Numbered from the stretch's first letter, positions 31,673 to 59,897 are shown. The stretch is DNA of 64,000 nt from Eubacteriales bacterium (GCA_045644805.1 JAZRHO010000026.1:1483-65482); one strand, 5' to 3'. Program-made: numbers and translations. The notes: generated by a model from the letters alone, not told the origin.

Positions 31673-31718
31673 TTTTTTACTCCTTGCTTTTGGAAATAAA
31701 TTCCACTTTTTATATAAA

Positions 31719-31747
31719 ATTATATCCGCAAAATTCTCAAAACTCAA
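31719..31747 (-). promoter_or_regulatory. Sigma-A promoter candidate for the giant surface protein gene
   Basis: Minus strand: TTGAGT (31747-31742), 17 nt, TATAAT (31724-31719). Confidence 0.5.
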
Positions 31748-33316: not shown

Positions 33317-33386
33317 ATCTATTAAATATTATAGCGTGAAACGGATATCGGTATTTTCTATTTTCACGCCATGGGAATAAATAAAA

Positions 33387-34481
33387 ATGAGAGACTTAAA
33401 GGATATAAGAATCACTATAAATGAAATCGACGCGCAGATGCGCGAGCTTTTTGCAAAACGAATGGCGGCGGCTAAAGAGGTTGCCGAATATAAATGCGCT
33501 CACGGAATTCCGATACTTGATTCGGCAAGAGAAGCAGCTGTTATTGAGAAGAACGCATCAGCACTTAATAACGAAGAGCTCAGACCGTATTACGTAAACT
33601 TTCTTGAAGATACTATGGCGGTTTCGAGAAGCTATCAGGACATGCTTATATCCGGCATGAAGGTTGCATATTCGGGTGAGCGCGGAGCTTTCGGATACAT
33701 AGCCGCATCTAAGCTTTTCCCTAACGCAAGGAAGGTTGCTTACAGCAATTTTGACAAAGCTTACGAGGCTTGCCGCAGCGGTGAGTGCGACGCGGCGGTA
33801 TTACCTATTGAGAATAGCTATAACGGTGAGGTTGGAGCCGTAACCGATTTGATGTTTTCAGGTCCGCTTATCGTTAATTCTGTTATAGATGTCGACGTGA
33901 CGCACTGCTTGCTTGGTGTAAAGGGTGCTTCGATTTCGGACATAAAGACGGTTATAAGCCATCCGCAGGCACTTGCGCAGTGCCACGGCTTCATAAGAGA
34001 ACACGGATTCTCCGAGCAGGACTATGAGAATACTGCGCTTGCAGCTGAATATGTCGCTTCGGTAGGTGATAAAACTCTGGCTGCAATCGGAAGCGAAAGT
34101 GCGGCGGCTATATTTGGCCTTGAGGTTATTGAGAAAAATATAAATCAATCCAAAAGCAATGCCACAAGGTTTGCATCCTTCTCGCGCTCCGAGCACAAGC
34201 ATCAGACTAACGAAGCAGGAATACACAGTATTCTTCTGTTCACTGTAAGAAACGAAGCAGGCGCGCTCGCGAAAGCTCTCGACATCATAGGTAAACACGG
34301 ATTCAATATGAGAAATCTCCGTTCAAGACCTATGAAGGAGCTTATGTGGCAATATTACTTCTACGTTGAAGCCGAGGGCAATATAAATTCCAAGGAAGGA
34401 AAGCGTTTGCTCGAAGACTTAAATGAATATTGCGATAAGGTTAAATTTATCGGTACATACGTCGATAAAAAATTTATCTAA
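33387..34481 (+). CDS. pheA: Bifunctional chorismate mutase / prephenate dehydratase
   Basis: N-terminal AroQ-type CM helix (IDAQMRELFAKRMAAAKEVAEYK), the PDT domain (VAYSGERGAFGY, NATRFASF), and a C-terminal ACT domain (LRSRPMKE). Confidence 0.92.
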   Translation: MRDLKDIRITINEIDAQMRELFAKRMAAAKEVAEYKCAHGIPILDSAREAAVIEKNASALNNEELRPYYVNFLEDTMAVSRSYQDMLISGMKVAYSGERGAFGYIAASKLFPNARKVAYSNFDKAYEACRSGECDAAVLPIENSYNGEVGAVTDLMFSGPLIVNSVIDVDVTHCLLGVKGASISDIKTVISHPQALAQCHGFIREHGFSEQDYENTALAAEYVASVGDKTLAAIGSESAAAIFGLEVIEKNINQSKSNATRFASFSRSEHKHQTNEAGIHSILLFTVRNEAGALAKALDIIGKHGFNMRNLRSRPMKELMWQYYFYVEAEGNINSKEGKRLLEDLNEYCDKVKFIGTYVDKKFI

Positions 34482-34502
34482 ACATAAGAACTGAGGTTTT
34501 TT

Positions 34503-35519
34503 ATGAAAGCTGAAAACAAGAAAATAAGAATGGAGCTCGGTGAGCGAAGCTATGATATTACCATAGGCGAAGGTCTGCTTTGCCGCGCTGACGAGTACAT
34601 GAATCTCAACCGACGTGTGCTTATCGTAACCGATTCCGGTGTTCCTGAAGAATATTCCAAAACGCTTGCATCGCTTTGCAGAGAAGCAAGGATTTTTACA
34701 TTTCCACAAGGCGAAGAAAGCAAAAACCTCGGTACTTACGCCGAGATATGCAAACAAATGTTGTCATTTGGTTTACAAAGAAAGGATGCGGTAGTTGCCG
34801 TAGGCGGTGGAGTTTGCGGTGATATGGCAGGCTTTGCGGCAGCAACCTACATGAGAGGAATTGATTTTTACAACGTTCCTACGACTCTTCTTTCTCAAGT
34901 AGATTCCTCGATAGGAGGAAAAACCGCTGTAGATTTCAGCGGTGTAAAAAATATCATAGGGGCATTTTATCAGCCTCGCGCTGTTCTTATAGATACTGAC
35001 GTTTTGAAAACCCTTGATAAGCGTCAGTTTTCCGCAGGTCTTGCAGAAGCCTTAAAAATGGCACTCACTTCAGATGGGGAGCTTTTTGAAATGATGGAAG
35101 CGGGTCTTTACAAGACGCGCCTTGCGGATATGATTTTCCGTGCGCTCTCTATAAAAAAGGCAGTTGTTGAAGCTGACGAATGCGAAGGTTCTTTGAGAAA
35201 AATTCTCAATTTCGGACATACATTTGGGCACGGCATAGAGGCTCTTGGCGGACTTTTGCACGGGGAGTGCGTTGCGCTTGGAATGATTCCTATGTGCTCT
35301 CCGAGCGTCAAAAAAAGACTTATTCCTATTTTACGTGACATGGGTCTGCCTACCGCTTTTGACGGTGACATGGATAAGGCTATCGATTTTATGAAGCATG
35401 ACAAAAAAGGCGATGGCGATGCTGCTCACGCTGTTTTTGTTGACGATATAGGAACGTTCAGACTCGAAAGGGTGACATTCGCAAATCTTGCAAAGCATAT
35501 CAAAAGTAATATGAATTGA
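34503..35519 (+). CDS. aroB: 3-dehydroquinate synthase
   Basis: GGGVCGDMAGFAAATYMRGIDFYNVPTTLLSQVDSSIGGKTAVD and the FGHTFGHGIE metal site. Confidence 0.93.
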   Translation: MKAENKKIRMELGERSYDITIGEGLLCRADEYMNLNRRVLIVTDSGVPEEYSKTLASLCREARIFTFPQGEESKNLGTYAEICKQMLSFGLQRKDAVVAVGGGVCGDMAGFAAATYMRGIDFYNVPTTLLSQVDSSIGGKTAVDFSGVKNIIGAFYQPRAVLIDTDVLKTLDKRQFSAGLAEALKMALTSDGELFEMMEAGLYKTRLADMIFRALSIKKAVVEADECEGSLRKILNFGHTFGHGIEALGGLLHGECVALGMIPMCSPSVKKRLIPILRDMGLPTAFDGDMDKAIDFMKHDKKGDGDAAHAVFVDDIGTFRLERVTFANLAKHIKSNMN

Positions 35520-35527
35520 GGAACCCA

Positions 35528-36622
35528 ATGAAAAACACTTTTGGAAACAATCTTACAGTGACACTTTTCGGAGAAAGCCACGGCCCGGCGATAGGATGTG
35601 TTATCGACGGTCTGGCACCGGGAATTAAAATTGATTTTGAATATATAAGGCTCTGCTTGGCACAGCGTCAAGCAAGAGGTGATATTTCAACGCCAAGGCA
35701 TGAAGCGGATGAGCCGGAATTCATTTCCGGTGTAAAAAACGGTGTTACTGAAGGTACACCTGTTTGCTTGCTTATACGCAATGCGAATACAAAGAGCGAG
35801 TCATATTCGCCATACGAAAATACCCCTCGCCCCTCGCATGCAGATTATACCGCAGAGTGCAAGTATCACGGCTTCCAGGACAAGTCCGGTGGCGGTCATT
35901 TTTCCGGCAGAATAACCGCGCCGATAGTTGCGGCAGGTGCGCTTGTCAGACGCGCTCTTTCGGACAGAGGTATTGAAATAGCAACTCATATTAAATCTCT
36001 TCATGGCATAAATGACCGTGATTTCGAGAATTACAAAGAGGATGCAGAAAAGCTTATGCAAGAATATTTCCCTGCTTTGGATGACACCGCCGCAGAGAAA
36101 ATGAAAAAAGAAATCCTTCTTGCAAGAGAGGATAAAGACAGTGTAGGAGGCGTTCTTGAGACGGTTATCACTAACTTCCCCAAAGGAGTGGGTGAACCTT
36201 GGTTTGACACGGTTGAGGGGGTAATTTCCCATGCGATGTTCTCTATCCCAGGTGTTAAGGGTATAGAATTCGGAGCCGGATTTGAAATAGCAAAAATGCG
36301 CGGTAGCGAAGCCAATGACCCTTATCGTATTGAAAACGGAGAGATTGTTACCGAAAGAAACTCAAACGGCGGTATAAATGGCGGAATTACTAACGGTATG
36401 CCTATAATTTTCAGACTTGCCGTAAAGCCTACGCCTTCTATTGCGAGGCAACAGAATACAGTTGATATGAAAACGCTTGAAAATGCAACGATAAGCATAA
36501 CAGGCCGCCACGACCCTGCGATAATTCACAGAGCAAGAGCCGTGGTAGACGCTATGTGCGCTTTATCTGTCGCAGACCTTCTCGTTACGCGTTACGGAAC
36601 AGATTATCTCGGAGGGGAGTGA
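35528..36622 (+). CDS. aroC: Chorismate synthase
   Basis: TLFGESHGPAIGCVIDGLAPG, RPSHADY and GGHFSGR signatures. The ATG at 35528 has a GAGG RBS. Confidence 0.95.
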   Translation: MKNTFGNNLTVTLFGESHGPAIGCVIDGLAPGIKIDFEYIRLCLAQRQARGDISTPRHEADEPEFISGVKNGVTEGTPVCLLIRNANTKSESYSPYENTPRPSHADYTAECKYHGFQDKSGGGHFSGRITAPIVAAGALVRRALSDRGIEIATHIKSLHGINDRDFENYKEDAEKLMQEYFPALDDTAAEKMKKEILLAREDKDSVGGVLETVITNFPKGVGEPWFDTVEGVISHAMFSIPGVKGIEFGAGFEIAKMRGSEANDPYRIENGEIVTERNSNGGINGGITNGMPIIFRLAVKPTPSIARQQNTVDMKTLENATISITGRHDPAIIHRARAVVDAMCALSVADLLVTRYGTDYLGGE

Positions 36623-36629
36623 CTTGCCG

Positions 36630-37880
36630 ATGAAATACGGTTGCATCGGAGAGCATCTTAAGCACAGCTTTTCAAAAGAAATTCACGCTCTTATTGCAGA
36701 CTACGATTACGTAATAAACGAAATACCTAAGGATGATGTTGACGCTTTCATGAAAAATGCCGATTTCGCGGCTATCAACGTCACTATTCCTTACAAAGAA
36801 ACGGTAATTCCTTATCTCTATCATATTGACGAAGGAGCAAGGCTTATCGGAGCTGTAAACACTATCGTCAACCGCGGCGGAAAGCTTTTTGGATATAATA
36901 CCGATTTTTACGGTATGAGCATGCTTGCCTCTCGCATAGGTATATCCTTCGAGGGAAAGAAGGTTCTTATCCTAGGCACAGGCGGAACGTCAAAAACAGC
37001 ACATGCTGTGGCTAAGGCTAACGGAGCAAAAGAAATTATTAAAGTCTCAAGAAAAGAGGGCAACGAGTCGATTTTGTACACCGATGTTTACAAATATCAT
37101 ACTGATGCTCATATCATAATTAATACCACGCCCGTCGGAATGTTTCCCAATATTTGCAATAAACCTATCGAACTTAGAAGATTTCCAAATCTCATAGGAG
37201 TTATTGACGCGGTTTACAATCCACTGAGAACGCCTCTTATTCTGGAAGCAAAAGAACTTGGAATACCCGCTGATGGCGGACTCTATATGCTCGTTGCGCA
37301 AGGCGTAAGGGCATCGGAGATATTCCTTGACACCAAGTATGATGATACGCTTCTTGACGAGGTATATTCAAAAATCGAAAAGCAGAAGGAAAATATCGTT
37401 CTTATCGGTATGCCTGCTTCGGGTAAAAGCACTATAGGCAAGATAATAGCAGACAAGCTTTCCCGCAAGCTTTTGGACACAGACAGTGAAATTGAGAAAA
37501 ACACGCAAAAAACTATTCCTGATATTTTCCGCGAAAGCGGTGAGAATGCTTTCCGCGATTTGGAAAGCGATACTGTAAATGAGGTCTCAAAGTTAAGCGC
37601 GGTGGTAATTTCAACGGGCGGAGGCGCAGTTCTACGAAAGGAAAATACGCACTCGCTTCGCAAAAACGGAAGAATATATTTTCTCGACAGGTCGCCTGAG
37701 CTCCTGATTCCCACTTCTGACAGGCCTACCGCGGGAACTCGTGACGCTATAATGAAGCGCTACACCGAAAGAATAGATATTTACCGCTCTTCTGCAGATG
37801 TAATTATAGACGGCAATCTTACGCCGGAGGCAGTAGCACAAAAAATACTTGAAGATTTCCTTTCTAAGGAGCACTTATGA
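36630..37880 (+). CDS. aroE-aroK: Fused shikimate dehydrogenase / shikimate kinase
   Basis: N-terminal SFSKEIH and NVTIPYKE (AroE). The C-terminal ~165 aa carry the Walker A motif GMPASGKSTIGK and STGGGAVL (AroK). Confidence 0.9.
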   Translation: MKYGCIGEHLKHSFSKEIHALIADYDYVINEIPKDDVDAFMKNADFAAINVTIPYKETVIPYLYHIDEGARLIGAVNTIVNRGGKLFGYNTDFYGMSMLASRIGISFEGKKVLILGTGGTSKTAHAVAKANGAKEIIKVSRKEGNESILYTDVYKYHTDAHIIINTTPVGMFPNICNKPIELRRFPNLIGVIDAVYNPLRTPLILEAKELGIPADGGLYMLVAQGVRASEIFLDTKYDDTLLDEVYSKIEKQKENIVLIGMPASGKSTIGKIIADKLSRKLLDTDSEIEKNTQKTIPDIFRESGENAFRDLESDTVNEVSKLSAVVISTGGGAVLRKENTHSLRKNGRIYFLDRSPELLIPTSDRPTAGTRDAIMKRYTERIDIYRSSADVIIDGNLTPEAVAQKILEDFLSKEHL

Positions 37881-38323
37881 AGCTATATATAATAAACGGT
37901 CCTAACTTGAACATGCTCGGAATACGCGAGCCAAACAAGTACGGAACACAAAATTATGATTCCCTTTGCAAAATGATTAAGGAACACTGCGAAAGCCGCG
38001 GTGTCGATACGGTTTTTTATCAATCAAATCACGAGGGGGACCTCGTCGATAAAATACAGGAAGCATACTACCAAAATGCTGACGGAATAGTTATAAATCC
38101 CGGTGCATATACGCATACGAGTATAGCACTGCTTGATGCCGTTCTCTCGACATGTCTTCCCTGCGTTGAGGTTCATATATCAAAGGTTGAAGAGCGAGAG
38201 GATTTCAGGCAGGTAAGCTACATAAGACAAGCTTGCGTAAAGACAATTACCGGCAAAGGCTTTGCGGGATATATCGAAGCCTGCGATATACTCATAGGAG
38301 GCAAAATTGAAGGTCGAAATTAA
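37877..38323 (+). CDS. aroQ: Type II 3-dehydroquinate dehydratase
   Basis: NGPNLNMLGIREPNKYG and INPGAYTHTSIAL. ATGA overlap with the preceding stop. Confidence 0.93.
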   Translation: MKLYIINGPNLNMLGIREPNKYGTQNYDSLCKMIKEHCESRGVDTVFYQSNHEGDLVDKIQEAYYQNADGIVINPGAYTHTSIALLDAVLSTCLPCVEVHISKVEEREDFRQVSYIRQACVKTITGKGFAGYIEACDILIGGKIEGRN

Positions 38324-39518
38324 AAAAAGCCGTGCCAACGGAAAGGTTTACGCTCCCACCTCTAAAAGCATGGCACACAGACTTCTTATTTGCGCCGCAT
38401 TGAGTGATAGCAAAAGCGTAATCAGAGGAATTACTCCTTGCGAGGACGTTCTGGCAACGGTAGATGTCCTTTCAGCGCTTGGCGCTAAAATTTCACATAA
38501 AGATGATATTTACACCGTCGAAGGCTGTAATATGAGGACCACCTCCGCGCGCGACACTCTGTTTTGCCGTGAAAGCGGAAGCACTCTTCGATTTATTATA
38601 CCTCTCGCTTCTCTTTCAGGAAATGAGATTACCGTATCGGGAGCTCCATCTCTTATGAGCAGACCTATGGGAGTTTACGAATCCATATTCAATGAACGAG
38701 GTCTTTTATTCGATAAAAGAGACGGTAAAATAACTCTGCACGGATCGCTTACCGCAGGAGAATATACCGTAAGAGGTGATATAAGCAGCCAATTTATATC
38801 GGGTCTCCTTTTTGCGTTACCACTTCTTGATGGCAACAGTGTTATACACATTATACCTCCGTTTGAAAGCAGATCGTATATAGATTTAACTCTCTTGGCG
38901 CTTAAGCATTTCGGAGTATATGCAGAGATGCCGGATGATAGGACTATCAAGATAAACGGAAACCAAAAATACAAATCGGGTGACTTCACAGTGGAGGGTG
39001 ACTATTCCGGTGCTGCGTTCTTAGATGCTTTAAACGCAATCGGGTCTTCGGTTGAGGTACTCGGACTTTCGGAAAATTCCGCGCAGGGAGATAAGGTTTA
39101 TAGAAATTTCTATCCTCTTCTTAAAGAAAGCACACCCAAAATAGACATAGAAAACTGCCCGGATCTCGGTCCTATTCTCTTTACACTAGCTGCGGCTTTT
39201 AACGGTGCGGAATTTACAGGAACAAAGAGACTTAAGATCAAAGAAAGCGACAGAGCTGCTACAATGGCAAAAGAATTAAAAAAATTCGGTGCTGATATAG
39301 AGATTTTTGAAAATTCTGTACTCGTAAGAAAAGCAAATTTGCACGCTCCAAAGGAAACCCTTTGCGGGCATAACGACCATAGAGTGGTAATGTCTCTTTC
39401 CGTACTTCTCACGCTCTTCGGCGGTACGATAGACGGCGCGGAGGCAGTATGCAAAAGTTACCCTGATTTCTTCCGCGATATGAAGAAGCTCGGTGTGGAG
39501 GCAACAATTTATGACTGA
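38307..39518 (+). CDS. aroA: 3-phosphoshikimate 1-carboxyvinyltransferase (EPSP synthase)
   Basis: KSMAHRLLICAAL, LFCRESGSTLRF and HNDHRVVMSL blocks. TTG start with a GGAGG RBS. Confidence 0.93.
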   Translation: MKVEIKKSRANGKVYAPTSKSMAHRLLICAALSDSKSVIRGITPCEDVLATVDVLSALGAKISHKDDIYTVEGCNMRTTSARDTLFCRESGSTLRFIIPLASLSGNEITVSGAPSLMSRPMGVYESIFNERGLLFDKRDGKITLHGSLTAGEYTVRGDISSQFISGLLFALPLLDGNSVIHIIPPFESRSYIDLTLLALKHFGVYAEMPDDRTIKINGNQKYKSGDFTVEGDYSGAAFLDALNAIGSSVEVLGLSENSAQGDKVYRNFYPLLKESTPKIDIENCPDLGPILFTLAAAFNGAEFTGTKRLKIKESDRAATMAKELKKFGADIEIFENSVLVRKANLHAPKETLCGHNDHRVVMSLSVLLTLFGGTIDGAEAVCKSYPDFFRDMKKLGVEATIYD

Positions 39519-40380
39519 GCTTACCAAAGATACTAAAATACTCATTGTCGGTCTTGGAGTTATCGGCGGAGGATATGCAAAAGCCTTGACCTATGCCGGC
39601 TATAAGCACATACGCTGTATTACAAAAAATCCTGCAGACGTCGATTATGCGATAGCGCACGGAATAATAGAATACGGTACTACAAATATTGAGAAGGACC
39701 TTATCCAAGACTCCGAGCTTATCATTTTTGCTCTTTATCCGCATATATTCAAGGACTGGATTAAGAGTCATCAAAGCCTATTCTCAAATGGCACTCTGAT
39801 AACCGACGTTACCGGTGTAAAAAGCGGAATAGTTAACGAAGTTCAAGCTATACTGAGAGAAGACGTTGAATTCATATCCTCACACCCTATGGCAGGACGT
39901 GAAAAAAGCGGCGTTGAATACAGTAATGCCGAAGTTTTCAGAGGAGCGAATTATATTGTAGTTCCAACAGAGAAAAACACCGAAAATGCTATACACATAT
40001 GTAAAAAGCTCGGAGAAGAGTTGGGATTTGGAAAAATCAGCATACTGTCGGTCGACGAGCACGATAAAATGATAGCATTTCTATCTCAGCTTACTCACTG
40101 TATAGCAGTTGTGCTTATGAATACAAATACTAAACCTGGACTCGAAAAATATACGGGCGACTCCTTCAGAGACCTTACACGTATAGCAAAAATCAACGAC
40201 TTGATGTGGAGCGAGCTTTTCTTGCTAAACAAAGATGCTCTTCTTCATGAAATAGATGCTTTTATTGACAAATTCAGCGAATTTCGCGAAATGATAGCAA
40301 ACTCTGACACCGATAATATGCGTCACGAGATGCGTCAGGCAAGCGAACGAAGAGAATTGTTTGACAAACCTAAAAACTAA
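39511..40380 (+). CDS. tyrA: Prephenate dehydrogenase
   Basis: IVGLGVIGGGYAKAL Rossmann motif and SHPMAGRE. The ATG at 39511 has a GGAGG RBS and overlaps the aroA stop. Confidence 0.9.
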   Translation: MTELTKDTKILIVGLGVIGGGYAKALTYAGYKHIRCITKNPADVDYAIAHGIIEYGTTNIEKDLIQDSELIIFALYPHIFKDWIKSHQSLFSNGTLITDVTGVKSGIVNEVQAILREDVEFISSHPMAGREKSGVEYSNAEVFRGANYIVVPTEKNTENAIHICKKLGEELGFGKISILSVDEHDKMIAFLSQLTHCIAVVLMNTNTKPGLEKYTGDSFRDLTRIAKINDLMWSELFLLNKDALLHEIDAFIDKFSEFREMIANSDTDNMRHEMRQASERRELFDKPKN

Positions 40381-40397
40381 AAAAGAGGCAATATATT

Positions 40398-41429
40398 ATG
40401 AACATGCAATTTTACCGCAAGCTACCTATTCCAATGGAAATTAAGGAGCAGTTCCCCGCTTCCGCTGAGATAAAGGCAACAAGAGATAAATGCGTTGCTG
40501 AAATGAAAGACATCTTTGCGGGCAAAAGCGACAAATTTATTTTGGTTATAGGTCCATGCTCTGCAGATAACGAAGACTCAGTCCTTGATTATATCTACCG
40601 TCTCAGAGGCGTTCAGGACAAGGTATCCGATAAGATCTTTATTGTTCCAAGAATTTATACAAACAAACCGAGAACAACGGGAGAAGGATACAAAGGTATG
40701 CTTCATCAGCCCGACCCTAACGCAGATCCAGATCTTCTTAAAGGTATAGTAGCTATAAGAAAGCTTCATATGCGTGCAATTTCAGAGACAGGCTTCGGAT
40801 GCGCCGACGAAATGCTTTACCCCGAAAATCACAGATATCTTTCCGATCTTCTTGCTTACGTTGCGATTGGAGCACGTTCGGTTGAAGATCAGCAACACAG
40901 ACTTACAGCCAGCGGACTTGATATCCCTGTAGGCATGAAAAATCCTACCGGTGGAGATATATCCGTAATGATGAACTCCATAAAAGCAGCTCAATGCTCT
41001 CACGTATTCTGCTATCGCGGATGGGAAGTCAAGAGCGCGGGAAATCCTTATGCTCACGCAATACTTCGCGGATACGTTGACAAGCACGGCAAATCACATC
41101 CCAATTATCACTATGAAGACGTTGCGGGACTTTGCGAAATTTACGCTGCTTCTTCTCTTGAAAATCCTGCTTGTATAATAGATACAAACCACTCAAATTC
41201 CGGAAAGAAATATCTTGAGCAAGTCAGAATAGCAAAAGAAATTCTTCAAAGCCGTAACTATAACCCAGACGTCAAGAAGATGGTAAAAGGTCTTATGATT
41301 GAAAGCTATATCGAAGACGGCTGTCAAAAAATATCCACAGAAGAGGTTTACGGTAAATCTATAACAGACCCCTGCCTTGGTTGGGAGAAAACCGAGAGAA
41401 TGATTTACGATATTGCAGAAATGCTTTAA
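40398..41429 (+). CDS. aroG: 3-deoxy-7-phosphoheptulonate (DAHP) synthase, type I
   Basis: GPCSADNED, KPRTTGEGYKGMLHQPDP and IDTNHSNSGK blocks. Confidence 0.92.
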   Translation: MNMQFYRKLPIPMEIKEQFPASAEIKATRDKCVAEMKDIFAGKSDKFILVIGPCSADNEDSVLDYIYRLRGVQDKVSDKIFIVPRIYTNKPRTTGEGYKGMLHQPDPNADPDLLKGIVAIRKLHMRAISETGFGCADEMLYPENHRYLSDLLAYVAIGARSVEDQQHRLTASGLDIPVGMKNPTGGDISVMMNSIKAAQCSHVFCYRGWEVKSAGNPYAHAILRGYVDKHGKSHPNYHYEDVAGLCEIYAASSLENPACIIDTNHSNSGKKYLEQVRIAKEILQSRNYNPDVKKMVKGLMIESYIEDGCQKISTEEVYGKSITDPCLGWEKTERMIYDIAEML

Positions 41430-41446
41430 TATTTTTGACAAATATA

Positions 41447-41490
41447 AAAACCGAGTTCAAAATTCGAACTCGGTTTTCTTTTTATTTTTA
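41447..41490. terminator. Bidirectional terminator between the aro operon and the ABC operon
   Basis: aaaaccgagttc (41447-41458) / gaactcggtttt (41466-41477) is a 12-bp perfect stem with a 7-nt loop, followed by ctttttattttt. Confidence 0.8.
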
Positions 41491-41492
41491 TC

Positions 41493-42542
41493 TTAGCCTA
41501 CAAGACCTGAACGTTCAATACCTTGAACAAGATATTTCTGACAGAACAGATATAAAACAATCAACGGAGCGATAATAAGCATACCCGCGGTATTTTGAAT
41601 AACGTTCCTGTAAAGAGACCAACCGGCAAATTTGTCATACTGACTCAGTGTACGAGGCGGTGACAGATAAACGTCCGGCATAAGATAGAACTCTGAGCCT
41701 TTCGTCCAGAACATTCCCGTATAGAACTCATCAGTCCACTGCCATGAGAACGAGAAGAGGAATACTGTTATCATCATGGGAATTGAGAGAGGAAGGATTA
41801 TCTGGAAGAAGGTACGGAATACACCTGAACCGTCAACATAGGCTGACTCTTCAAGCTCATCGGGAACGCCCTTAAAGAACTGCCTCATAAGATAGATATA
41901 AAGACCGTTCTTAAAAGCAAGACCGCATATCGACAATATGATAAGAGGCCACATTGTATCCACAAGCTCTAAGGAATCACCAAAGATCAATGCAATCGGT
42001 CCCTTATATCCCCATGCTTGAACCGTCAGAATATCGAAGTTAACGAAGTGATCCTGGAAGGCAAGCTTCAAGGTTCTGTGAGGAATAATCATAGAAATGA
42101 CAACTACTATCATTATAAGCGAATTACCCTTGAACTTAAACTTTGCAAGTCCGTAGCCTATAAGGCAGGCAACGAGAGTTTGAATGAGCGCGCAAAGCAA
42201 CGAAAGAAGCGCGGTGTTCCAAAGAGCCTCAAAGTAATGGTTTTCGATTATAATATACTTGTAAGTGTCAAGTGTAAAATGCTTAGGAATAAGCGATACA
42301 GTTGCATCGATAACATCTTCCTTTGTCATGAATGAACCTGCAATTCTTGCAAAGAAAGGATAAAGAATTACGTAAGAAACACCAAGCATCATAATAAATC
42401 TGAAGATGTTTATGATAACTGTGATCCATGTATGCGAGGACTTAAGCTTACTTAGCATTCTTTCTTTCAAGGAGAGCTTACCTTCGTAGTCAACATGTAT
42501 TGAATTTTTGGTTTCTTTTACTGTATAAGCATTGTTTTCCAT
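41493..42542 (-). CDS. Carbohydrate ABC transporter permease (MalG/LplC-like), pair 2
   Basis: Six-TM profile and the EAA-loop variant EESAYVDGSGVFRTFFQIILPL. GGAGG RBS. Confidence 0.88.
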   Translation of the reverse strand: MENNAYTVKETKNSIHVDYEGKLSLKERMLSKLKSSHTWITVIINIFRFIMMLGVSYVILYPFFARIAGSFMTKEDVIDATVSLIPKHFTLDTYKYIIIENHYFEALWNTALLSLLCALIQTLVACLIGYGLAKFKFKGNSLIMIVVVISMIIPHRTLKLAFQDHFVNFDILTVQAWGYKGPIALIFGDSLELVDTMWPLIILSICGLAFKNGLYIYLMRQFFKGVPDELEESAYVDGSGVFRTFFQIILPLSIPMMITVFLFSFSWQWTDEFYTGMFWTKGSEFYLMPDVYLSPPRTLSQYDKFAGWSLYRNVIQNTAGMLIIAPLIVLYLFCQKYLVQGIERSGLVG

Positions 42543-42556: not shown

Positions 42557-43558
42557 TTAATCTCTTCTTTGATAGAATATAAACGTAGAAGCAATTGCCG
42601 CAACCGCTGCTATGATAAGCATAATGATCACGAAATATATCCATGACATTGCCGTAGCGCTATACGGATCTGCTCCATATGCGGTATTGATATACTTTAT
42701 CATAATATTCTGCGAACGTGTAAACGCGTCGATTATCGTATAAACAGTGTTTACAAGTATCATGGGCGAGATCATCGGGAAGGTTACCTTCCAGAAGGTT
42801 TCCCATCCTGTTGCACCGTCTATACGGCATGCTTCGTAAATCGACGGAGATATCGACTGAAGTCCTGCAAGGAATATCAACATCTGAACACCGGAGTAGT
42901 TTATGATGTTATAAACGTTGTTAACAAGATCAACAACGTATGCAACAAGCTCTCCGCCAACCTGCATATTCGCAAACAGCTTTTCTACGTCAAGAGTTGA
43001 TATGATCTGACTTGTGGTGTTTGAGCCTGAACCGTCATCAATACCATCCTGCGAAACGCCTGACATAATATCACCTGCGTTAATTGTTTCCATAATACCT
43101 GTTGAAACAATAACGGGAAGGAAGAATATTGCACGGAATGCCGCGCGACCAAGCATTTTCTGGTTAAGAACTACCGCTATAAACAGCGAGAATATTATAA
43201 CCGCAGGAACTTCAAATATAAGCTGCTGAATACCTGCAACAAGATTTGTTACAAATGTAGAGTTATTTGTAAATGCTTCAATATAATACTTAAATCCTAT
43301 AAATTCATACGTTGTCGGATTGGTCTTATATATCGGCTTACTCATACTGAACCATATTGAGTCAAGCAGAATAGGAAGATAGATAAAGAGCACTCCAATG
43401 ATAAAAGGAAGAACAAAGGCATATCCTGCACGAGCTTTTCTTGCATCAAGCGAAACCTTTTTGCGAGGCTTGAGAAGACCGTCATTGCCAAGCTCGCCTG
43501 AATCTATAACGGGAGCTGAAACACCGAGTCCTTCAGATGCATTAATATTTTCACTCAT
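42557..43558 (-). CDS. Sugar ABC transporter permease (MalF/LplB-like), pair 2
   Basis: EAA loop YEACRIDGATGWETFWKVTFPMISP. The start ATG overlaps the upstream stop as TAATG. Confidence 0.88.
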   Translation of the reverse strand: MSENINASEGLGVSAPVIDSGELGNDGLLKPRKKVSLDARKARAGYAFVLPFIIGVLFIYLPILLDSIWFSMSKPIYKTNPTTYEFIGFKYYIEAFTNNSTFVTNLVAGIQQLIFEVPAVIIFSLFIAVVLNQKMLGRAAFRAIFFLPVIVSTGIMETINAGDIMSGVSQDGIDDGSGSNTTSQIISTLDVEKLFANMQVGGELVAYVVDLVNNVYNIINYSGVQMLIFLAGLQSISPSIYEACRIDGATGWETFWKVTFPMISPMILVNTVYTIIDAFTRSQNIMIKYINTAYGADPYSATAMSWIYFVIIMLIIAAVAAIASTFIFYQRRD

Positions 43559-46500
43559 TACTCATTACCTCCTTCTGCTTTTATAGTTTGATACTCATAT
43601 TTGCCAAGAGTATAAATTTTTCCTCCAAGGTTAACGTCTACCGAGTAAATATTGTAGTTAAGTATGAACATTGTTCCGTCGGAATAGGTTACAAGCACTA
43701 TATTACCGATATCGCTTGTATAGTTAGTGTACTTGTAATCACTGCTGTCATCTGTTGCAAAAGAGTCGGTAACAAATGAATATTCGGATTCATAGCTGAT
43801 AGCATCAATAGTGACTGCCTTCTCATTAACTCCACCGTTTCCGTTATATTCATTTTCATATTTAGCTGCGACTTCGTCAAGGGATACACGTAGTAGCTCC
43901 CAGATTTCATCGGGGAGATTTATTCTCTGAGCCGTTTCATCATAAACGCAGTTAATTTCCTGAGCAAACCATTTAAGAAGCTTTTCGGTGTCAACGTTCA
44001 CCTTAAGCGCGCATCCCCATTGCTCTGAGGACTGCTTAAGTGCTTCATACTCATCGTGAACACGAGCGGAAATCAAAGCATCAAGCTCTTCAACGAATTC
44101 AGCTATAAGAAGTTTATAGTTCTCTTCCCATTCGGCAACTTCTATAACACGCTCGCCCTTAATAATTCTATGATCTGTTATCTTGCATTTCTGAAGACCG
44201 CCGATAGCACTGTTCAGCTCGCTATACGTAATAAGGATATTATCATGCCATGTGCTGTAATCTACTCCGTAGTATTCACTAAGGAGCTCGTCTTCCTTCA
44301 TGTGTCCTATATTGTCACTCTGGAAAGCAAGTATATAGTAGAGCGATGCGCCAGATTCGATAGCACGAAGTATATCGTAAGCTGTTGTACCTGAATAGTT
44401 TATCGGAGTTCCTGTATAATTTACAGAGCCGTGAAGTACCATGCCTACAAACGGAACAGTATAAGATGAGTATGCAAGATGGCTCGAATCAATATTTGCA
44501 TTGAGAATATGATCTGCATATTTAAGTGAGTAAGCATTTCCCTTATCAAGCATAATATCAAGGTTATCTGTGCCTGACATTTTTTCAAGAACAGCAGTTA
44601 CATAACCTTCAGCCTCATCGCGGTTGACAGGCTGCTTTTTATCAAAGTTAGAGTTCAAATCAGAACCGAGAGTAGATACCGAAATAGCACTGATTTCATA
44701 TTTCGAGTACTTCTTGATGAATTTAGAGTAAAGCTCCTCAAATGATTCCGGATTTACAACAAGTGAATAAAAGCTTTCATATTCCTGAAGAACGGAATTG
44801 TAAGATTGCTTCGATGCATAACGGTTATCAACCATTCGCGAAACATTGCCTTTAATTCTGATACCGTCGGATGCCGAGGTATTGTTTATGTATGAAAAAT
44901 CGAAATCGGGATATATGCCGAAGTTTGAGCCTTCTTTAGCGGATACAGATTCCGCCGTTTCAAGAAGGTTTCTAAGGCCCTTCTTTCCGCCACAGGCTCT
45001 GCTCCACTTGATCTTTGTGGGATAGGTGGAATAAAGACCGCCGTTAGCAAAACCGGTAAGACGGAAATTAATGTTGGTTATATTCTGTATCTGCGAAACA
45101 AGATCTCTGCAATCTTGAGCGGCAGCAGCATACTGAAGCTTTTCGTATTCTTCAGTTGACTCCGCGGCAAGCTTATCATACTCAGCAGCCTTCGCGGTAT
45201 ATATCTCTACTGCGCCCGAAAGCTCTTCATAGATAGTAGCTATATCCTCAAACTTTGTAAGAGGAATAGAAGTTTCTACAGGGAATGTAAGAATTTTCTT
45301 AACGATATCCATTGCTCCGAGAACTTCTATATAGAGAGGCATATCATCTGTTACCGTTTCAAGAGCGGAAAGCGTACCGTTTGCGTAAAGATAATCGCGG
45401 TAGTAGTTTACCATACCCATATAAGAAGAAACGTATCCCGATTTAACAGTATTATCAACCTTCTCATCTGTAAGCATAGCGTATCTTGTTACGTAAGATC
45501 CGTTATATTTCGATTCGGAAACTATTTTGTAAGAAACAGCACCTCCGACAGAAACTGTCTCGGAGAGGTCGTACTCATCAGCAGGGTAAGGAGTGTATGA
45601 GCAATATACATGACCAAATCTGTAAGTCAAACCGCCCATCACGAATTCGAGATTTGCAAGAGATGCTCCCTCTTCGATTATAGCGAAGTAACCGTTGGTT
45701 ACTCTTTCAACGCCGTATGCAAGTGATGTGCTGGCGTTCGCATCATCCTCGGTAACAAGACCGAAGACAGGCATTGTTATCTGCTCTCTATGCTCGCCCG
45801 TTATATTGGAATAACAGTAATCTGTTCCGTATACGGTTGCAGTAACGTGAGGCCTGCTTGATGCAAAATCCTCAAACTCCGAAACAGCTCCGCTTCCGTC
45901 AGGATAGAAGATGTATCCCTCCTCATTAAGATCGCCAGCACCAAAGTAAGGAAGCACAGAAACCGAATCAAGCGTATATACGGTTTCATCAAATGAAATC
46001 GAGCTTGCGGGAAGACGAACGCAGAGGCTTCCATCGCTATTGAAGCTATATTCAAGTGAACATGTGAAAACAGGCTTTTGCTGAGTTTTATCAACATATC
46101 CAAGCTCTTCCTCATCCTCAAGCATTTCTGACAAGGTATATGAGCCGCAATATTTACGGAAAAGATTCGATGCCTGACTCTTAACCGCATTGTCTTCTAT
46201 CTTTCTAAGCTCATAAACAGGTATGCCATAAACATCACTGGAAGTTTTAAGCGTGTAGTACGCCATTATTGTATTAATGTCCGTATGCAAAGCGCTGATG
46301 GCTTTATATCCTGCCGAGTTTTCAGGCAATTTCGAATATACGGTTTTCATTGCTGAGAGATATTTTCTCATGCCTGAGATGTAAAGATATCCATCCTTGT
46401 AGAGCTGAGAACTATATTCTTCATACTCAAACGGATTATATTCGCCGTTATAATCCGCACCGGCACAATGCTCTTCCATAAGAGAGCAGAGCTCCTGAAG

Positions 46501-47091
46501 CATCGGAACAAGTATCATTTCTTCGTACTTCTCTGCTTTAAGCACTCCGGGGAGAAGATATCTAACCGTAGTATCGCCGAGAGTGTAGTTTACTCTTATA
46601 CCGCTGCTTATGTATTCGGTAGTGATTTGACCGCGCTCAGCAGCCCACTCTGATGAACTGTAAACATTGGGCGTACTCGTTGCAATAACAGAGAAATTAA
46701 TATTAAGCTGGCTTAACAGTTCTCTGTTTGTCTTCTCTGAGTTAGCGGTATAATACCATGGATTACTTGTAAGTATCTGACCTGTAACTCTGTTTTGATA
46801 ATAAAGAACTCCTGTATATGCATTTACATATATAGCATATTTTCCATCAGCGGATACGAGAGGTCTCAAATATCCAAGAGAATTTTCGTATATCAGCATT
46901 TCTTCCGCTGTTTTGAAGTTATACGTGGTATATACCTCAGTTACATACGCGGAAACATCATCAGGTGAATTCAAAGAATTCTCTGTGTTTGCGATATATG
47001 CCGCATCAGCTTTAGTTGGAAACAGCACGAAAATGGAGCTGAACACCATAACGAGAGCTAAAGCAGACGATAATATTTTATTAAGTTTCAT
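43558..47091 (-). CDS. 1177-aa secreted protein of unknown function (possibly a DUF5696-type exoprotein)
   Basis: SPase-I type signal peptide (MKLNKILSSALALVMVFSSIFVLFPTKADA/AY) and a GGAGG RBS. I see no catalytic or binding motif by eye. The family name is a recollection, not a search result. Confidence 0.8.
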   Translation of the reverse strand: MKLNKILSSALALVMVFSSIFVLFPTKADAAYIANTENSLNSPDDVSAYVTEVYTTYNFKTAEEMLIYENSLGYLRPLVSADGKYAIYVNAYTGVLYYQNRVTGQILTSNPWYYTANSEKTNRELLSQLNINFSVIATSTPNVYSSSEWAAERGQITTEYISSGIRVNYTLGDTTVRYLLPGVLKAEKYEEMILVPMLQELCSLMEEHCAGADYNGEYNPFEYEEYSSQLYKDGYLYISGMRKYLSAMKTVYSKLPENSAGYKAISALHTDINTIMAYYTLKTSSDVYGIPVYELRKIEDNAVKSQASNLFRKYCGSYTLSEMLEDEEELGYVDKTQQKPVFTCSLEYSFNSDGSLCVRLPASSISFDETVYTLDSVSVLPYFGAGDLNEEGYIFYPDGSGAVSEFEDFASSRPHVTATVYGTDYCYSNITGEHREQITMPVFGLVTEDDANASTSLAYGVERVTNGYFAIIEEGASLANLEFVMGGLTYRFGHVYCSYTPYPADEYDLSETVSVGGAVSYKIVSESKYNGSYVTRYAMLTDEKVDNTVKSGYVSSYMGMVNYYRDYLYANGTLSALETVTDDMPLYIEVLGAMDIVKKILTFPVETSIPLTKFEDIATIYEELSGAVEIYTAKAAEYDKLAAESTEEYEKLQYAAAAQDCRDLVSQIQNITNINFRLTGFANGGLYSTYPTKIKWSRACGGKKGLRNLLETAESVSAKEGSNFGIYPDFDFSYINNTSASDGIRIKGNVSRMVDNRYASKQSYNSVLQEYESFYSLVVNPESFEELYSKFIKKYSKYEISAISVSTLGSDLNSNFDKKQPVNRDEAEGYVTAVLEKMSGTDNLDIMLDKGNAYSLKYADHILNANIDSSHLAYSSYTVPFVGMVLHGSVNYTGTPINYSGTTAYDILRAIESGASLYYILAFQSDNIGHMKEDELLSEYYGVDYSTWHDNILITYSELNSAIGGLQKCKITDHRIIKGERVIEVAEWEENYKLLIAEFVEELDALISARVHDEYEALKQSSEQWGCALKVNVDTEKLLKWFAQEINCVYDETAQRINLPDEIWELLRVSLDEVAAKYENEYNGNGGVNEKAVTIDAISYESEYSFVTDSFATDDSSDYKYTNYTSDIGNIVLVTYSDGTMFILNYNIYSVDVNLGGKIYTLGKYEYQTIKAEGGNE

Positions 47092-49281: not shown

Positions 49282-50157
49282 TTAATCCTTCATACCCGAA
49301 GATCCCATCGTTTCGATAATCTGGCTCTGGTTAAGCACGAATACCAAAATAGGAACGAGCATCATAACAACCGTAGATGCAGCGCCTGCACCTGAACGTG
49401 CAATACCACCCGAAAGAATCTGAGAAATCGCGTAGTTGAAGGTTTTTAATTCCTCTGAATGAATGTAAATGGATGAGCCTGTGTTCCAAAGGTTCTTGAA
49501 GCACTCAATAATAAGAGTCAACCATGCGGGTTTAACCATGGGCATTGCGATAATCAAATAAGTTCTGAACTCGCTTGCTCCGTCAAGACGCGCAGACTCA
49601 AGAACAGTATCAGGAACCGATGTCTCCATAAACTGCTTCATAAGGTAAAGACCTATCGTCGTTGCCATAGACGGAACTATAATAGCAAGATAGGAATCTA
49701 TCCAACCGAATGCGGAAAGAATGATGAAGTGCGTTACCTGGTTAACTGTGGAGTGGAACATAAGAGATGCAACTATGATTTTGAATATGGCATTTCTTCC
49801 GGGGAAACGAAGCTTAGCCAATGAATAAGCAGCCATAGATGCAAATATAAGGTTACCTACAGTACCGCAAAGAGTGATGAACACAGTGTTGAAAATATAT
49901 CTTGAGAACGGTACCCAAGAGTCACCCATGAGTGTAAACAAATCTGAGAAGTTCTCAAGAGTCGGCTTCATAACGTAAAACTTAGGTGGGAACATGAAGA
50001 GCTCATCGAGAGGCTTCAAGGATTGAACTATAACGTAGTACATGGGCAGGAACATGAACAGACCGAAAATCGTAAGCAATATGGTTATACCCACATCGCC
50101 TCCGGCTGAACGGTTTAAAACGACTCGGTGGCCTCTGGTTCTTAATTTTTTCGCCAT
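49282..50157 (-). CDS. Carbohydrate ABC transporter permease (MalG-like), pair 1
   Basis: EAA loop LESARLDGASEFRTYLIIAMPMVKP. The ATG at 50157 (TGAtATG with the upstream stop) is preferred; the GTG at 50166 is an alternative. Confidence 0.88.
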   Translation of the reverse strand: MAKKLRTRGHRVVLNRSAGGDVGITILLTIFGLFMFLPMYYVIVQSLKPLDELFMFPPKFYVMKPTLENFSDLFTLMGDSWVPFSRYIFNTVFITLCGTVGNLIFASMAAYSLAKLRFPGRNAIFKIIVASLMFHSTVNQVTHFIILSAFGWIDSYLAIIVPSMATTIGLYLMKQFMETSVPDTVLESARLDGASEFRTYLIIAMPMVKPAWLTLIIECFKNLWNTGSSIYIHSEELKTFNYAISQILSGGIARSGAGAASTVVMMLVPILVFVLNQSQIIETMGSSGMKD

Positions 50158-50158
50158 A

Positions 50159-51109
50159 TCACTCACCTACCTTCGAAAGGGCCTTCTTAATAATGTTATT
50201 TGAAGCGTACATTATTACAAATAAGACCACGGCTATTGCGGAAGCATAACCTATTTCATAACGCGCACCGCCATAGTCATCAAGATGGTGCATTATTGTA
50301 TGCGCTGCATAGTCGACCGACGGGAATCCGCAAAGTGCGGTAACTACCGATCCGAAGACGAAAGAGTTGGTAATAGCAAGAACCGCACCGAACATCATCT
50401 GAGGACGCATGGTAGGAAGGGTTATGTACCAAAGCTCCTGCCAACGGTTTTTGATACCGTCAACCGCAGCCGCTTCGTAAAGAGAACGGTCAATAGTCTG
50501 GAATCCTGCTATGAAGGACAGGAACGCAGTACCAAGAGACGTCCAAAGAGCAACTACTATACAAAGAGGCATTACGTAATCCGCATCCTCAAACCACAAC
50601 ACAGCCTCGGATATAATTCCAAGGTCAATAAGAGTTGCGTTTACCCAACCGTACGAGTCGGACGAGAAGAGCGTCTTCCATATAAGGTATACGTTACCTG
50701 ATATCGAAGGAGCATAGAATATAAGAGTTACTACAGCACGAAGCTTGGGGGGAAGCTCGTTTATGAACCACGCGATAAGCAGCGAAAGAAGGTATGATAC
50801 AGGACCTGTTATTGCCGCGAATATCAACGTGTTCTGACAAGCGAGAAGGAATATATCGTCATCAAAGAATAGACGGGTAAAGTTGTCGATTCCCACAAGA
50901 TGGGGCATCTGCAACATGTTAAAGTCCGTAAAACTCAAAATCATCGAAAGGAAAACCGGAAGAATGGTAAAGATGATGAACAAAAGGAAGAACGGTGCAA
51001 GCATGAAATATGCCGTCTTATTGTTTTTCATCTCTTCCCAGGTCCAACGGAGCTTCGACACTTCAGAGCGTTTTACAGGACGAGTTGTCTCTGCATTAGT
51101 CTGTGACAT
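50159..51109 (-). CDS. Sugar ABC transporter permease (MalF-like), pair 1
   Basis: EAA loop YEAAAVDGIKNRWQELWYITLPTMRP. AAGGAG RBS. Confidence 0.88.
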   Translation of the reverse strand: MSQTNAETTRPVKRSEVSKLRWTWEEMKNNKTAYFMLAPFFLLFIIFTILPVFLSMILSFTDFNMLQMPHLVGIDNFTRLFFDDDIFLLACQNTLIFAAITGPVSYLLSLLIAWFINELPPKLRAVVTLIFYAPSISGNVYLIWKTLFSSDSYGWVNATLIDLGIISEAVLWFEDADYVMPLCIVVALWTSLGTAFLSFIAGFQTIDRSLYEAAAVDGIKNRWQELWYITLPTMRPQMMFGAVLAITNSFVFGSVVTALCGFPSVDYAAHTIMHHLDDYGGARYEIGYASAIAVVLFVIMYASNNIIKKALSKVGE

Positions 51110-54634: not shown

Positions 54635-54663
54635 ATTATAGCATATTAATTTAAAAATGTCAA
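54635..54663 (-). promoter_or_regulatory. Perfect-consensus sigma-A promoter of the seven-gene ABC operon
   Basis: Minus strand: TTGACA (54663-54658), exactly 17 nt, TATAAT (54640-54635). Confidence 0.75.
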
Positions 54664-55135: not shown

Positions 55136-55888
55136 TTACAACAAAAAATCCATTACAAGCATTATGCAAAATCCTATTATAAGGGAGAATGTTGCTTCGC
55201 TTTCGACTCCGTGGGAATGAGTTTCGGGAATCATTTCATCGCTTATAACATAGAGCATAGTACCTCCGGCAAAGCTTAGTGCAAAAGGCAAAACAACCGA
55301 TGCGACGCTTACGGCAAAATATCCTATCAAAGTACCTATAACCTCAACAAGCCCGGTCAATGAAGCGTAAAGGAAGGTCTTTCTTGGAGATATACCGCTA
55401 GCCAGCATCGGACTTATGATTATCATGCCCTCAGGAATATTTTGAAGAGCGATTCCTGCTGCTATTACCAAAGCCTCAGCGTCGTTCCCTGCTCCAAATC
55501 CTACTCCTGCCGCGATACCTTCCGGAAAATTATGAATGGCTATTGCAAGCACAAAAAGCATTACTTTATTGATTCGTTCCTTATTTTCGTGGGACTCTAT
55601 ATCATTTTCACTCATTTTATGCAAGTGCGGAACTAATTTATCTATAAGCTTCATACATATTGCCCCTACGGCAATTCCGGCAACGGTGATTATTATTCCG
55701 TATTTTCCTCCGTATTCAAGCGACGGAAGAATAAGCCCGAGCACGGCGGCAGCAAGCATTATGCCTGCTGCAAAGGCAAGAACGATATCACTGAACTTGT
55801 GAGAGATATTCCTAAATATGAAGCCGAAAAGCGCTCCTATTACAGTAGCGCCTCCCACGCCAATAGCAGTCAACAATACTATCTCCAT
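55136..55888 (-). CDS. zupT: ZIP-family divalent metal transporter (ZupT-like)
   Basis: HNFPEGIAAGVGF and LQNIPEGM motifs, 8-TM profile. The ATG at 55888 has GGAG 6 nt upstream. Confidence 0.9.
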   Translation of the reverse strand: MEIVLLTAIGVGGATVIGALFGFIFRNISHKFSDIVLAFAAGIMLAAAVLGLILPSLEYGGKYGIIITVAGIAVGAICMKLIDKLVPHLHKMSENDIESHENKERINKVMLFVLAIAIHNFPEGIAAGVGFGAGNDAEALVIAAGIALQNIPEGMIIISPMLASGISPRKTFLYASLTGLVEVIGTLIGYFAVSVASVVLPFALSFAGGTMLYVISDEMIPETHSHGVESEATFSLIIGFCIMLVMDFLL

Positions 55889-56011
55889 AATTGTCTCCAA
55901 TATATGACTTAACTTAATAGCAAGTTAAAATTCTTAAATGATTACTCTTATTACTTTATGAAAAAATTTTAATTTATGCCACTTTACGAATGTTAGGCGT
56001 AGCTATAATTT

Positions 56012-57073: not shown

Positions 57074-57104
57074 TTCTGTTTTTTCTCCTTGGAAAAACTA
57101 AAGA

Positions 57105-57171
57105 AGATGCCCAATAACCGAGTACATTCAAGAGAATTGCTGTTTATTTCTCTTACGGTGAATGGGCATCT
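57105..57171 (-). other. Long composite stem-loop between the lipoprotein gene and apbE
   Basis: Outer stem agatgccca (57105-57113) / tgggcatct (57163-57171). Inner stem aagagaa / ttctctt, plus accg/cggt. On the minus strand it is followed by cttctttagttttt. Confidence 0.5.
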
Positions 57172-57186
57172 TTATGAGACTGAATT

Positions 57187-58167: not shown

Positions 58168-58185
58168 TTTTATTTCTCCTTATTT

Positions 58186-58683: not shown

Positions 58684-58700
58684 AATTATACAAAGCCGTC

Positions 58701-59087: not shown

Positions 59088-59091
59088 CGAA

Positions 59092-59883: not shown

Positions 59884-59897
59884 GAATTACACCTCCT

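Follow-up and report, generated by a model that had tools for sequence, protein, structure and literature searches.

What might a 1177-aa exported protein contribute to a sugar importer when its gene lies among the permease genes, in the place where a substrate-binding protein (SBP) would be expected? The question is raised by a 64,000-nt stretch of DNA from Eubacteriales bacterium (GCA_045644805.1, JAZRHO010000026.1:1483-65482; hereafter the window, meaning the whole stretch analysed), which carries such a gene at 43558-47091 on the minus strand. The original prediction, made from the sequence alone, saw in its product an exoprotein translationally coupled to the downstream permease, which could be a novel substrate-delivery protein or a novel polysaccharide-active enzyme. 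Here we report that the protein belongs to the Pfam family DUF5696 and has the fold of a glycoside hydrolase (GH). Because the catalytic Asp and Glu of such enzymes are lacking and the gene holds a fixed place in a conserved importer operon, we think it more likely that the protein assists the transporter as a partner that does not cleave sugars than that it is an ordinary enzyme or binding protein.

The open reading frame (ORF) is genuine, and its TAA stop codon overlaps the ATG of the following gene, encoding permease B1, by one nucleotide (gagTAATGagt, minus strand), exactly as had been predicted. The gene belongs to an operon of seven same-strand genes, which extends from a promoter (54663-54635, putative, ~70 nt upstream of the first gene) to a terminator (41478-41446) and encodes, in order, a giant binding protein, the permease pair A (A1 and A2), a membrane protein with NHL, TPR and Yip1 domains, the DUF5696 protein and the permease pair B (B1 and B2). 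We refer to this set as the cassette. A hydropathy scan of the 1177 residues found a sole hydrophobic segment, at residues 6-24, and a putative cleavage site follows (A28-D29-A30/A31-Y32); P25, A30 and A31 hardly vary among 42 homologs. The cleavable signal peptide of the original prediction therefore keeps its site and the conservation around it, but this N-terminus may also be an uncleaved anchor. Neither an LPXTG motif nor a lipobox occurs in the 1177-aa sequence, and no SLH or dockerin match was obtained with Pfam, in agreement with the earlier reading; anchoring to the wall by sortase, lipobox, SLH or dockerin was rejected on these grounds.

The protein does have a known family. It matches Pfam DUF5696 (PF18952) in two stretches (E = 6.5e-127, 425 bits versus a cut-off of 25.6), and it is a remote homolog of characterised GH129/GH101 enzymes; NCBIfam held no family for it. 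Searches against PDB chains with the sequence itself (phmmer) and with a 42-sequence profile returned noise only, with no GH at E<=10. We then built an AlphaFold2 model from the 42-homolog alignment (mean predicted local distance difference test score, pLDDT, 75.6; predicted template modelling score, pTM, 0.62) and compared it with PDB structures by Foldseek. The best match was ZgGH129/DagB (5opq, E = 7.8e-17, TMt 0.60), followed by NagBb (5wzn, E = 4.7e-12) and then by GH101, GH31 and GH97 enzymes. The GH101 match (5a59) was weaker (E = 2.5e-6), and the column of the GH101 nucleophile Asp is occupied by Thr807. The model has the N-terminal beta-sandwich and the barrel of the GH129-type architecture, and the predicted fold thus points to a glycosidase ancestor. 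Homology search and structure prediction, the check proposed with the original prediction, accordingly gave a divided answer: a glycosidase fold was matched by Foldseek, but no PDB sequence was matched directly. The suspicion that the protein is not an SBP was well founded, since no SBP Pfam family matched it at E<=0.01, the top 50 fold matches contain no SBP, and the fold matches are glycosidases; we therefore rejected an SBP identity.

DUF5696 is large and widespread, comprising 4643 clusters at 50% identity in a profile search (E<=1e-3), and its carriers are gut, rumen and soil bacteria living on complex carbohydrates. We found no description of DUF5696/PF18952 or of the cassette in the literature searched. 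The typical length in Pfam is 740-980 aa versus 1177 aa here, and clade-specific helical or coiled insertions are found at 211-245, 627-668 and 978-1127. Some target-like relatives (P0329-P0385) reach 1800-2545 aa, with C-terminal extensions that have no Pfam match; when four relatives of 2000-2500 aa were scanned with Pfam for fused domains, DUF5696 alone was returned.

The sequence bridge to GH129 is provided by a second DUF5696 gene in the same assembly (G000:C38:1432-3225, plus strand). It encodes a 597-aa protein without a signal peptide and adjoins a gene for an AraC-type regulator (C38:509-1351). This paralog matches PF18952 with E = 2.2e-26 and, by plain phmmer, NagBb (5wzn) with E = 2.9e-18; Asp435 of NagBb aligned to its 'HYVDC' and Glu478 to its 'FSSEG'. 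A 38-sequence profile of the paralog family recovered NagBb at 2.1e-29, ZgGH129 at ~5e-6 and GH101 enzymes at 5e-5 to 2e-4. As the paralog matches both PF18952 and NagBb, Pfam DUF5696 holds genuine GH129-type proteins and the 1177-aa protein is their remote homolog. The latter has no direct sequence similarity to a characterised GH129 member, and its link is transitive through the paralog; aligned to the single paralog by hhalign, the target-clade profile scored a probability of 1.5%, in the beta2-beta3 region only. The paralog, which keeps both catalytic residues of NagBb, probably acts as an alpha-glycosidase inside the cell. One other metagenome-assembled genome (MAG) contains a homolog of the paralog as well as one of the 1177-aa protein (IJY23_05765, IJY23_07925).

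We mapped the catalytic residues by sequence alignments, strand positions and spacing. A MAFFT alignment combined the target clade and the NagBb segment of the phmmer match with 19 distant cassette-type proteins, drawn from a genome sample across the phylum, and 14 cytoplasmic paralog-type proteins; a second alignment added 40 further representatives to this set. The acid/base of NagBb is numbered Glu478 (Sato et al. 2017), in agreement with the Glu at the aligned position. In both alignments, the column of Asp435, which is catalytic in NagBb (PMC5698469), holds Thr807, within the invariant motif S804-V-S806-T807-L-G809. In the Glu478 column, one alignment places Lys850 and the other Asp849. 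The spacing of 43 residues between T807 and K850 equals that between D435 and E478, and both residues stand at the C-terminal ends of predicted strands of the model (DSSP), 802-806 (strand 4) and 845-849. Thus, the protein has neither the GH129 nucleophile nor the GH129 acid/base.

This loss is general in the clade. We aligned 147 representatives of 50%-identity clusters, all with E<1e-222, to the target-clade hidden Markov model (HMM). Position 807 was T in 115, S in 20, Y in 4, and G, A or N in 2 each, and never Asp. Position 849 was D in 73, S in 26, E in 19 and N in 16, with T also occurring, and position 850 was G in 87 and K in 20. D811 is likewise unconserved (90/147), and neither D811 nor D849 (73/147) was retained as a candidate for a displaced nucleophile or acid. 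The cytoplasmic paralog group keeps the Asp and the Glu without exception. Among the 19 distant cassette-type proteins the Asp is kept in 9-10, with Y, G, S, H, T or K at this position in the others; their acid/base column shows no conservation. With the trait columns removed, a FastTree phylogeny gave support of 100 both to the split of the cytoplasmic from the cassette clade and to a target-like clade of 52 rows. On this tree Asp and non-Asp must have interchanged at least 4 times, an approximate count given the long branches. Other polar residues are firmly held: D398 is present in 145/147 and D424 in 144/147 representatives, and the residues that are near-universal in the cassette type are D398 and D424 in the N-domain, E589, D755/R757, R824, N852, H887, N898, E912 and K932. 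The aromatic residue at 681, H887 and N898 are pocket residues in common with true GH129 enzymes. With Thr807 and Lys850/Asp849 at the catalytic positions, and no nucleophile Asp in the 147 representatives, the option of a novel polysaccharide-active enzyme is weakened.

We next turn to the gene neighbourhood. A pattern scan with one genome per species gave 164 relatives, from which 80 loci were kept, all in MAGs of gut or rumen Clostridia; the gene order of the window is retained in 80/80, within the limits of each contig. Between the DUF5696 stop and the start of permease B1, the gap is -8 to +20 nt in ~70/77 related loci, often TAAGGAGG. The median identity to the proteins of the window is 84% for permease A1 (over 64 related loci) and 88% for permease A2, which makes pair A far more conserved than the rest, 66% and 68% for permease pair B, 60% for the NHL/Yip1 protein, 57% for the giant binding protein and 45% for DUF5696, the fastest-evolving member of the cassette.

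The arrangement reaches far beyond these close relatives. PF18952 was found above its cut-off in 35 genomes of an even sample of 401 across the phylum, and we compared 20-kb stretches around 20 of the 35 hits, in which the identity of DUF5696 to the target is 20-29%. The NHL/Yip1 gene (fused or split), DUF5696, permease B1 and permease B2 are contiguous on one strand in 19/20 of these loci, the exception (L137) having its permeases ~3 kb away; the module of giant binding protein and pair A lies upstream or, in three loci, downstream of pair B. In all the loci compared, related and phylum-wide, the NHL/TPR/Yip1 gene is directly upstream of DUF5696. The cassette is a recurrent, uncharacterised system, not unique to the window. 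The original prediction had named a lack of co-occurrence with a permease pair as the finding that would speak against it. We found instead that pairing with pair B is strongly conserved, in all close loci with a contig long enough to show it and in 19 of the 20 phylum-wide loci. Its picture of a gene lying between two permease pairs needs a correction, in that pair B does adjoin the gene but the NHL/TPR/Yip1 gene separates it from pair A. The one-base overlap, taken as a sign of partnership, is part of a tight junction that is kept in most related loci; however, all six intergenic junctions of the operon measure -8 to +35 nt, so that the overlap is unexceptional and translational coupling by itself says little.

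The operon has the features of a CUT1-type ATP-binding cassette (ABC) importer, with BPD_transp_1 permeases, an SBP domain and an ATPase encoded outside. EAA-type coupling loops are recognisable in the sequences of 4/4 permeases. Neither an ATPase, nor a regulator, nor a recognisable enzyme is encoded among the seven genes, and MalK/MsmX-type ATPase genes lie elsewhere in the genome (G000:C16 and C53), an ATPase encoded apart from the operon being usual for the CUT1 importers of Firmicutes. The giant binding protein carries a C-terminal sugar-SBP domain at approximately residues 770-1040: SBP_bac_8 matches its C-terminal half (E = 3.9e-13), its PDB sequence matches are sugar SBPs such as Lin1841 (5ysb), and the top Foldseek matches of its AlphaFold2 model are 5ysf/5ysb (TMt 0.72-0.76). 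Its N-terminus has beta-sandwiches at ~73-315 and 351-491 and a helical bundle at 497-614, with no Pfam match (residues 1-488, scanned separately, gave no family); in the fold search with the full model the matches came mainly from the SBP part, and the sandwiches received no assignment. This protein has an N-terminal hydrophobic segment and no lipobox. The 720-aa protein consists of a signal or anchor segment, an NHL beta-propeller, TPR and a C-terminal multi-pass Yip1 domain (Pfam matches to Yip1 with E = 6.7e-14, NHL, SBBP and TPR), with hydropathy peaks at residues 480-696. Pair B has the longer predicted external loops: in B1, one of ~55-100 aa follows the third transmembrane segment, and in B2, one of 57 aa precedes the final segment.

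The supply of binding proteins bears on the position of the DUF5696 gene. Many distant cassettes contain an extra ordinary SBP of 430-490 aa (SBP_bac_1), beside pair B or before the giant protein, and this extra SBP is often a lipoprotein with a common 'GEWTWDKF' motif. Cassettes of the window's clade are without it. A tblastn search of this genome with two distant cassette SBPs found no ortholog in an assembly that is 84% complete, and an orphan ordinary SBP serving pair B from elsewhere in the genome was rejected on that basis. Given its absence from the clade and this null result, pair B in the window's clade lacks a dedicated classical binding protein. The suggestion that DUF5696 occupies the position of an SBP gene is upheld in this respect, as pair B here lacks the ordinary SBP that distant cassettes have; the finding fits that idea and does not prove it.

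Taken together, the repeated loss of the nucleophile, the unconserved acid/base, the fixed gene order and the fast evolution favour a generic component of the importer over a substrate-specific hydrolase. We propose that the DUF5696 protein is an extracytoplasmic partner of permease pair B that performs no catalysis and probably holds a sugar, and we put the chance of this at about even. On this proposal, the protein would be exported and would then stay at the membrane, bound to the NHL/Yip1 protein, to the external loops of pair B, or to both. A glycan or oligosaccharide might be held uncleaved in the pocket of the disarmed glycosidase, and the protein would present it to the importer or would organise the importer. 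The seven genes together would form a twin ABC import operon of the CUT1 type, for which an MsmX/MalK-type ATPase would supply the power in trans.

Several observations weigh against a non-catalytic partner. Were the signal peptide cleaved, the sequence would show no visible means by which the protein is retained at the cell. The profile of the target clade aligns weakly with that of the paralog family (hhalign probability 18%, E = 1.3e-3, used as a consistency check only). The pLDDT falls below 50 at 733-777, 808-815, 857-880 and 890-900, the barrel loops in which the best-conserved motifs lie. In addition, the near-universal carboxylates D398, D424, E589, D755 and E912 could form a different active site, and the activity of ZgGH129 needs Asp202 of its N-domain, the NagBb-type Glu not being conserved there (PMC5698469).

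These points bring forward the strongest alternative, namely that the protein is an active extracellular carbohydrate enzyme (a glycosidase, transglycosylase or lyase) with a catalytic apparatus unlike that of NagBb, in which, for instance, D398/D424 of the N-terminal domain or E589/D755 might perform catalysis and captured glycans would be trimmed for import by both permease pairs. The GH129/GH101 fold of the model is what such an enzyme would have, and strongly conserved polar and acidic residues are at hand in the barrel loops (D398, D424, E589, D755/R757, N852, H887 and N898). GH129-like catalysis is known to vary, as ZgGH129 keeps only the Asp of the NagBb pair in addition to its need for Asp202 (PMC5698469); moreover, the nucleophile Asp is present in roughly half of the distant cassette-type proteins, and the operon holds no other enzyme. 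However, a retaining GH family does not normally tolerate replacement of its nucleophile, and here that column is never Asp in the 147 representatives and is Y, G, H, K or S in other cassette lineages, next to an acid/base column that is not conserved either. An enzyme would also have to be reconciled with its being the fastest-evolving member of the cassette (median 45% versus 84-88% for pair A) and with a gene order that stays constant whatever the surroundings, which suggests a generic, not a substrate-specific, role. Owing to the universal carboxylates, the departure seen in ZgGH129 and the low confidence of the conserved loops, we keep this alternative as an unlikely but serious one. If it were correct, the protein would define a family related to GH129 in which catalysis is arranged in a new way.

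A purely structural or assembly factor that binds no sugar would equally account for the lost catalytic residues. It might be a scaffold or spacer, keeping the NHL/Yip1 protein and the giant binding protein in place above the permeases or across the cell wall. In another form, it might be a chaperone-like subunit on which the stability of pair B depends. The large clade-specific helical or coiled insertions agree with such a role, as do E912 and R824, which are universal yet stand at the starts of helices or strands, off the catalytic face, and the heavy chain 4F2hc sets a precedent (PMC8537225). A mere scaffold, however, would have no need of the GH129 pocket residues that are kept (aromatic 681, H887, N898 and D/N815), and we find this explanation rather improbable. 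That the gene is an unrelated passenger which merely shares the operon is so improbable as to be close to refuted by synteny, since the adjacency is kept down to 20-29% identity across the phylum, with a tight junction.

If the DUF5696 protein is a non-cleaving subunit of an ABC importer, the textbook account of sugar uptake in Gram-positive bacteria, with a binding protein, two permeases and an ATPase, misses a common multi-protein variant. Automatic labels such as 'hypothetical' or 'glycosidase' would then mislead, and bacteria would provide a clear example of an enzyme fold that has been taken into service by a transporter.

Table 1 Features of the cassette and of the DUF5696 protein. Coordinates are those of the window.
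Feature	Coordinates	Strand	Basis
Sigma-70-type promoter (TTGACA, 17 nt, TG-TATAAT, extended -10)	54635..54663	-	12/12 consensus match only
Giant binding protein, 1139 aa	51145..54564	-	PDB sequence matches, SBP_bac_8, AlphaFold2/Foldseek
Permease A1, MalF-like, BPD_transp_1, EAA-type coupling loop	50159..51109	-	Pfam, sequence
Permease A2, MalG-like, BPD_transp_1	49282..50166	-	Pfam, sequence
NHL/TPR/Yip1 membrane protein, 720 aa	47109..49271	-	Pfam, hydropathy
DUF5696 protein, 1177 aa, GH129-like fold	43558..47091	-	PF18952, AlphaFold2, Foldseek
Signal peptide or possibly signal anchor, residues 1-30, AXA site A28-D29-A30/A31	47002..47091	-	Sequence, homolog alignment
N-terminal beta-sandwich domain with helical insertion, residues ~57-550; motifs PDGSG (D398), YGxD (D424)	45442..46923	-	DSSP of model
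(beta/alpha)8-type barrel, residues 557-977, homologous to GH129/GH101 catalytic domain; clade-specific helical hairpin 627-668	44161..45423	-	
Thr807 codon, GH129 nucleophile position (NagBb Asp435)	44671..44673	-	Two alignments, DSSP
Asp849-Lys850 codons, GH129 acid/base position (NagBb Glu478), not conserved	44542..44547	-	Two alignments
Helical region 978-1127 (clade-specific, absent from typical family members) and C-terminal beta-sandwich, residues 978-1177	43561..44160	-	
Permease B1, MalF-like, BPD_transp_1, EAA loop; start overlaps DUF5696 stop by 1 nt	42557..43558	-	
Permease B2, MalG-like, BPD_transp_1, EAA loop; last operon gene	41493..42542	-	
Bidirectional intrinsic terminator, strong, 15-bp stem	41446..41478	-	Between permease B2 and convergent DAHP synthase-like gene

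The neighbours of the cassette in the window (55136-64000, minus strand, and 32126-41429, plus strand) are housekeeping genes, with no carbohydrate-active enzyme among them. The flank at 55136-64000 contains a ZIP metal transporter and ApbE (both by Pfam), a 326-aa protein without a Pfam match, and genes, one of them with an FMN_bind domain, that we read from their sequences as Rnf-complex-like. On the opposite flank, a gene read in the same way as DAHP synthase-like converges on the operon. Several related MAGs likewise have the ZIP gene and the DAHP synthase-like gene close to the cassette. Further away, at 26825-31747 on the minus strand, lies a 1640-aa ORF with the Listeria-Bacteroides repeat (Flg_new) and one transmembrane helix near the C-terminus; its cytoplasmic tail matches the C-terminal domain of ribosomal uL15/L27A (PF00828, E = 4.7e-10), an odd fusion.

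Finally, we compared the DUF5696 protein and its cassette with known systems. NagBb, the GH129 alpha-N-acetylgalactosaminidase of Bifidobacterium bifidum (5WZN/5WZP), likewise joins an N-terminal beta-sandwich to a GH13/GH101-like barrel and has in common with our protein the beta2 'G-W/F...G...P...GG' motif, the His of the H887 type and the Asn of the N898 type. It differs at the catalytic positions, where Asp435 is replaced by Thr807 and Glu478 by Lys850/Asp849, and it is cytoplasmic, whereas the DUF5696 protein is exported, longer by ~550 residues (it has N-terminal and helical insertions) and fixed in a transporter operon. ZgGH129/DagB, the alpha-1,3-(3,6-anhydro)-D-galactosidase of Zobellia galactanivorans (5OPQ, 8RZK), is the best structural match, and in its three-domain layout the N-domain supplies part of the active site (PMC5698469); its nucleophile Asp486 is lost in the target clade, and the sequence identity is 8%. 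The GH101 enzymes (SpGH101 5A59, EngBF 2ZXQ) have the same barrel fold, but the match is weaker, their catalytic Asp is missing from our protein and the accessory domains differ. Within Pfam DUF5696, the protein falls in an enlarged subclade with a two-stretch match and a nucleophile column that is mostly Thr/Ser, in a family that also has catalytically intact cytoplasmic GH129-like proteins.

On the transporter side, the CUT1 importers (the MalEFGK2 type and the Listeria Lin1841 system for sophoro-oligosaccharides) have the same type of permease and an ATPase encoded elsewhere, and the SBP domain of the cassette is nearest to that of Lin1841. The cassette departs from them in having two permease pairs, one giant binding protein and, in addition, two conserved exoproteins (NHL/TPR/Yip1 and DUF5696) that the classical systems lack. 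In YknWXYZ of Bacillus, the Yip1-family protein YknW is a component of an ABC transporter (PMC4887032), a precedent for a membrane protein with a Yip1 domain as an integral accessory; that system is an exporter of another ABC class, without a glycosidase-like partner.

The closest functional analogy is with rBAT and 4F2hc (SLC3), whose GH13-fold ectodomains, 'fake' or 'orphan' glucosidases without glucosidase activity, are ancillary subunits of heteromeric amino-acid transporters in the membrane (PMC8537225). The likeness would lie in the way the proteins work, with no homology beyond the ancestry of TIM-barrel glycosidases. The SLC3 heavy chains are eukaryotic and disulfide-linked to SLC7 carriers, and they do not act with ABC importers. 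By this analogy, it is conceivable, though we hold it doubtful, that the DUF5696 proteins of the cassette are bacterial counterparts of the SLC3 heavy chains, that is, obligatory non-glycosidase subunits docked on a CUT1 permease pair. Should this be true, DUF5696 would enable pair B in this clade to dispense with a dedicated classical binding protein. Along with the giant binding protein and the NHL/TPR/Yip1 protein, it would then mark out a new class of multi-component ABC glycan importers, widespread among Gram-positive bacteria.

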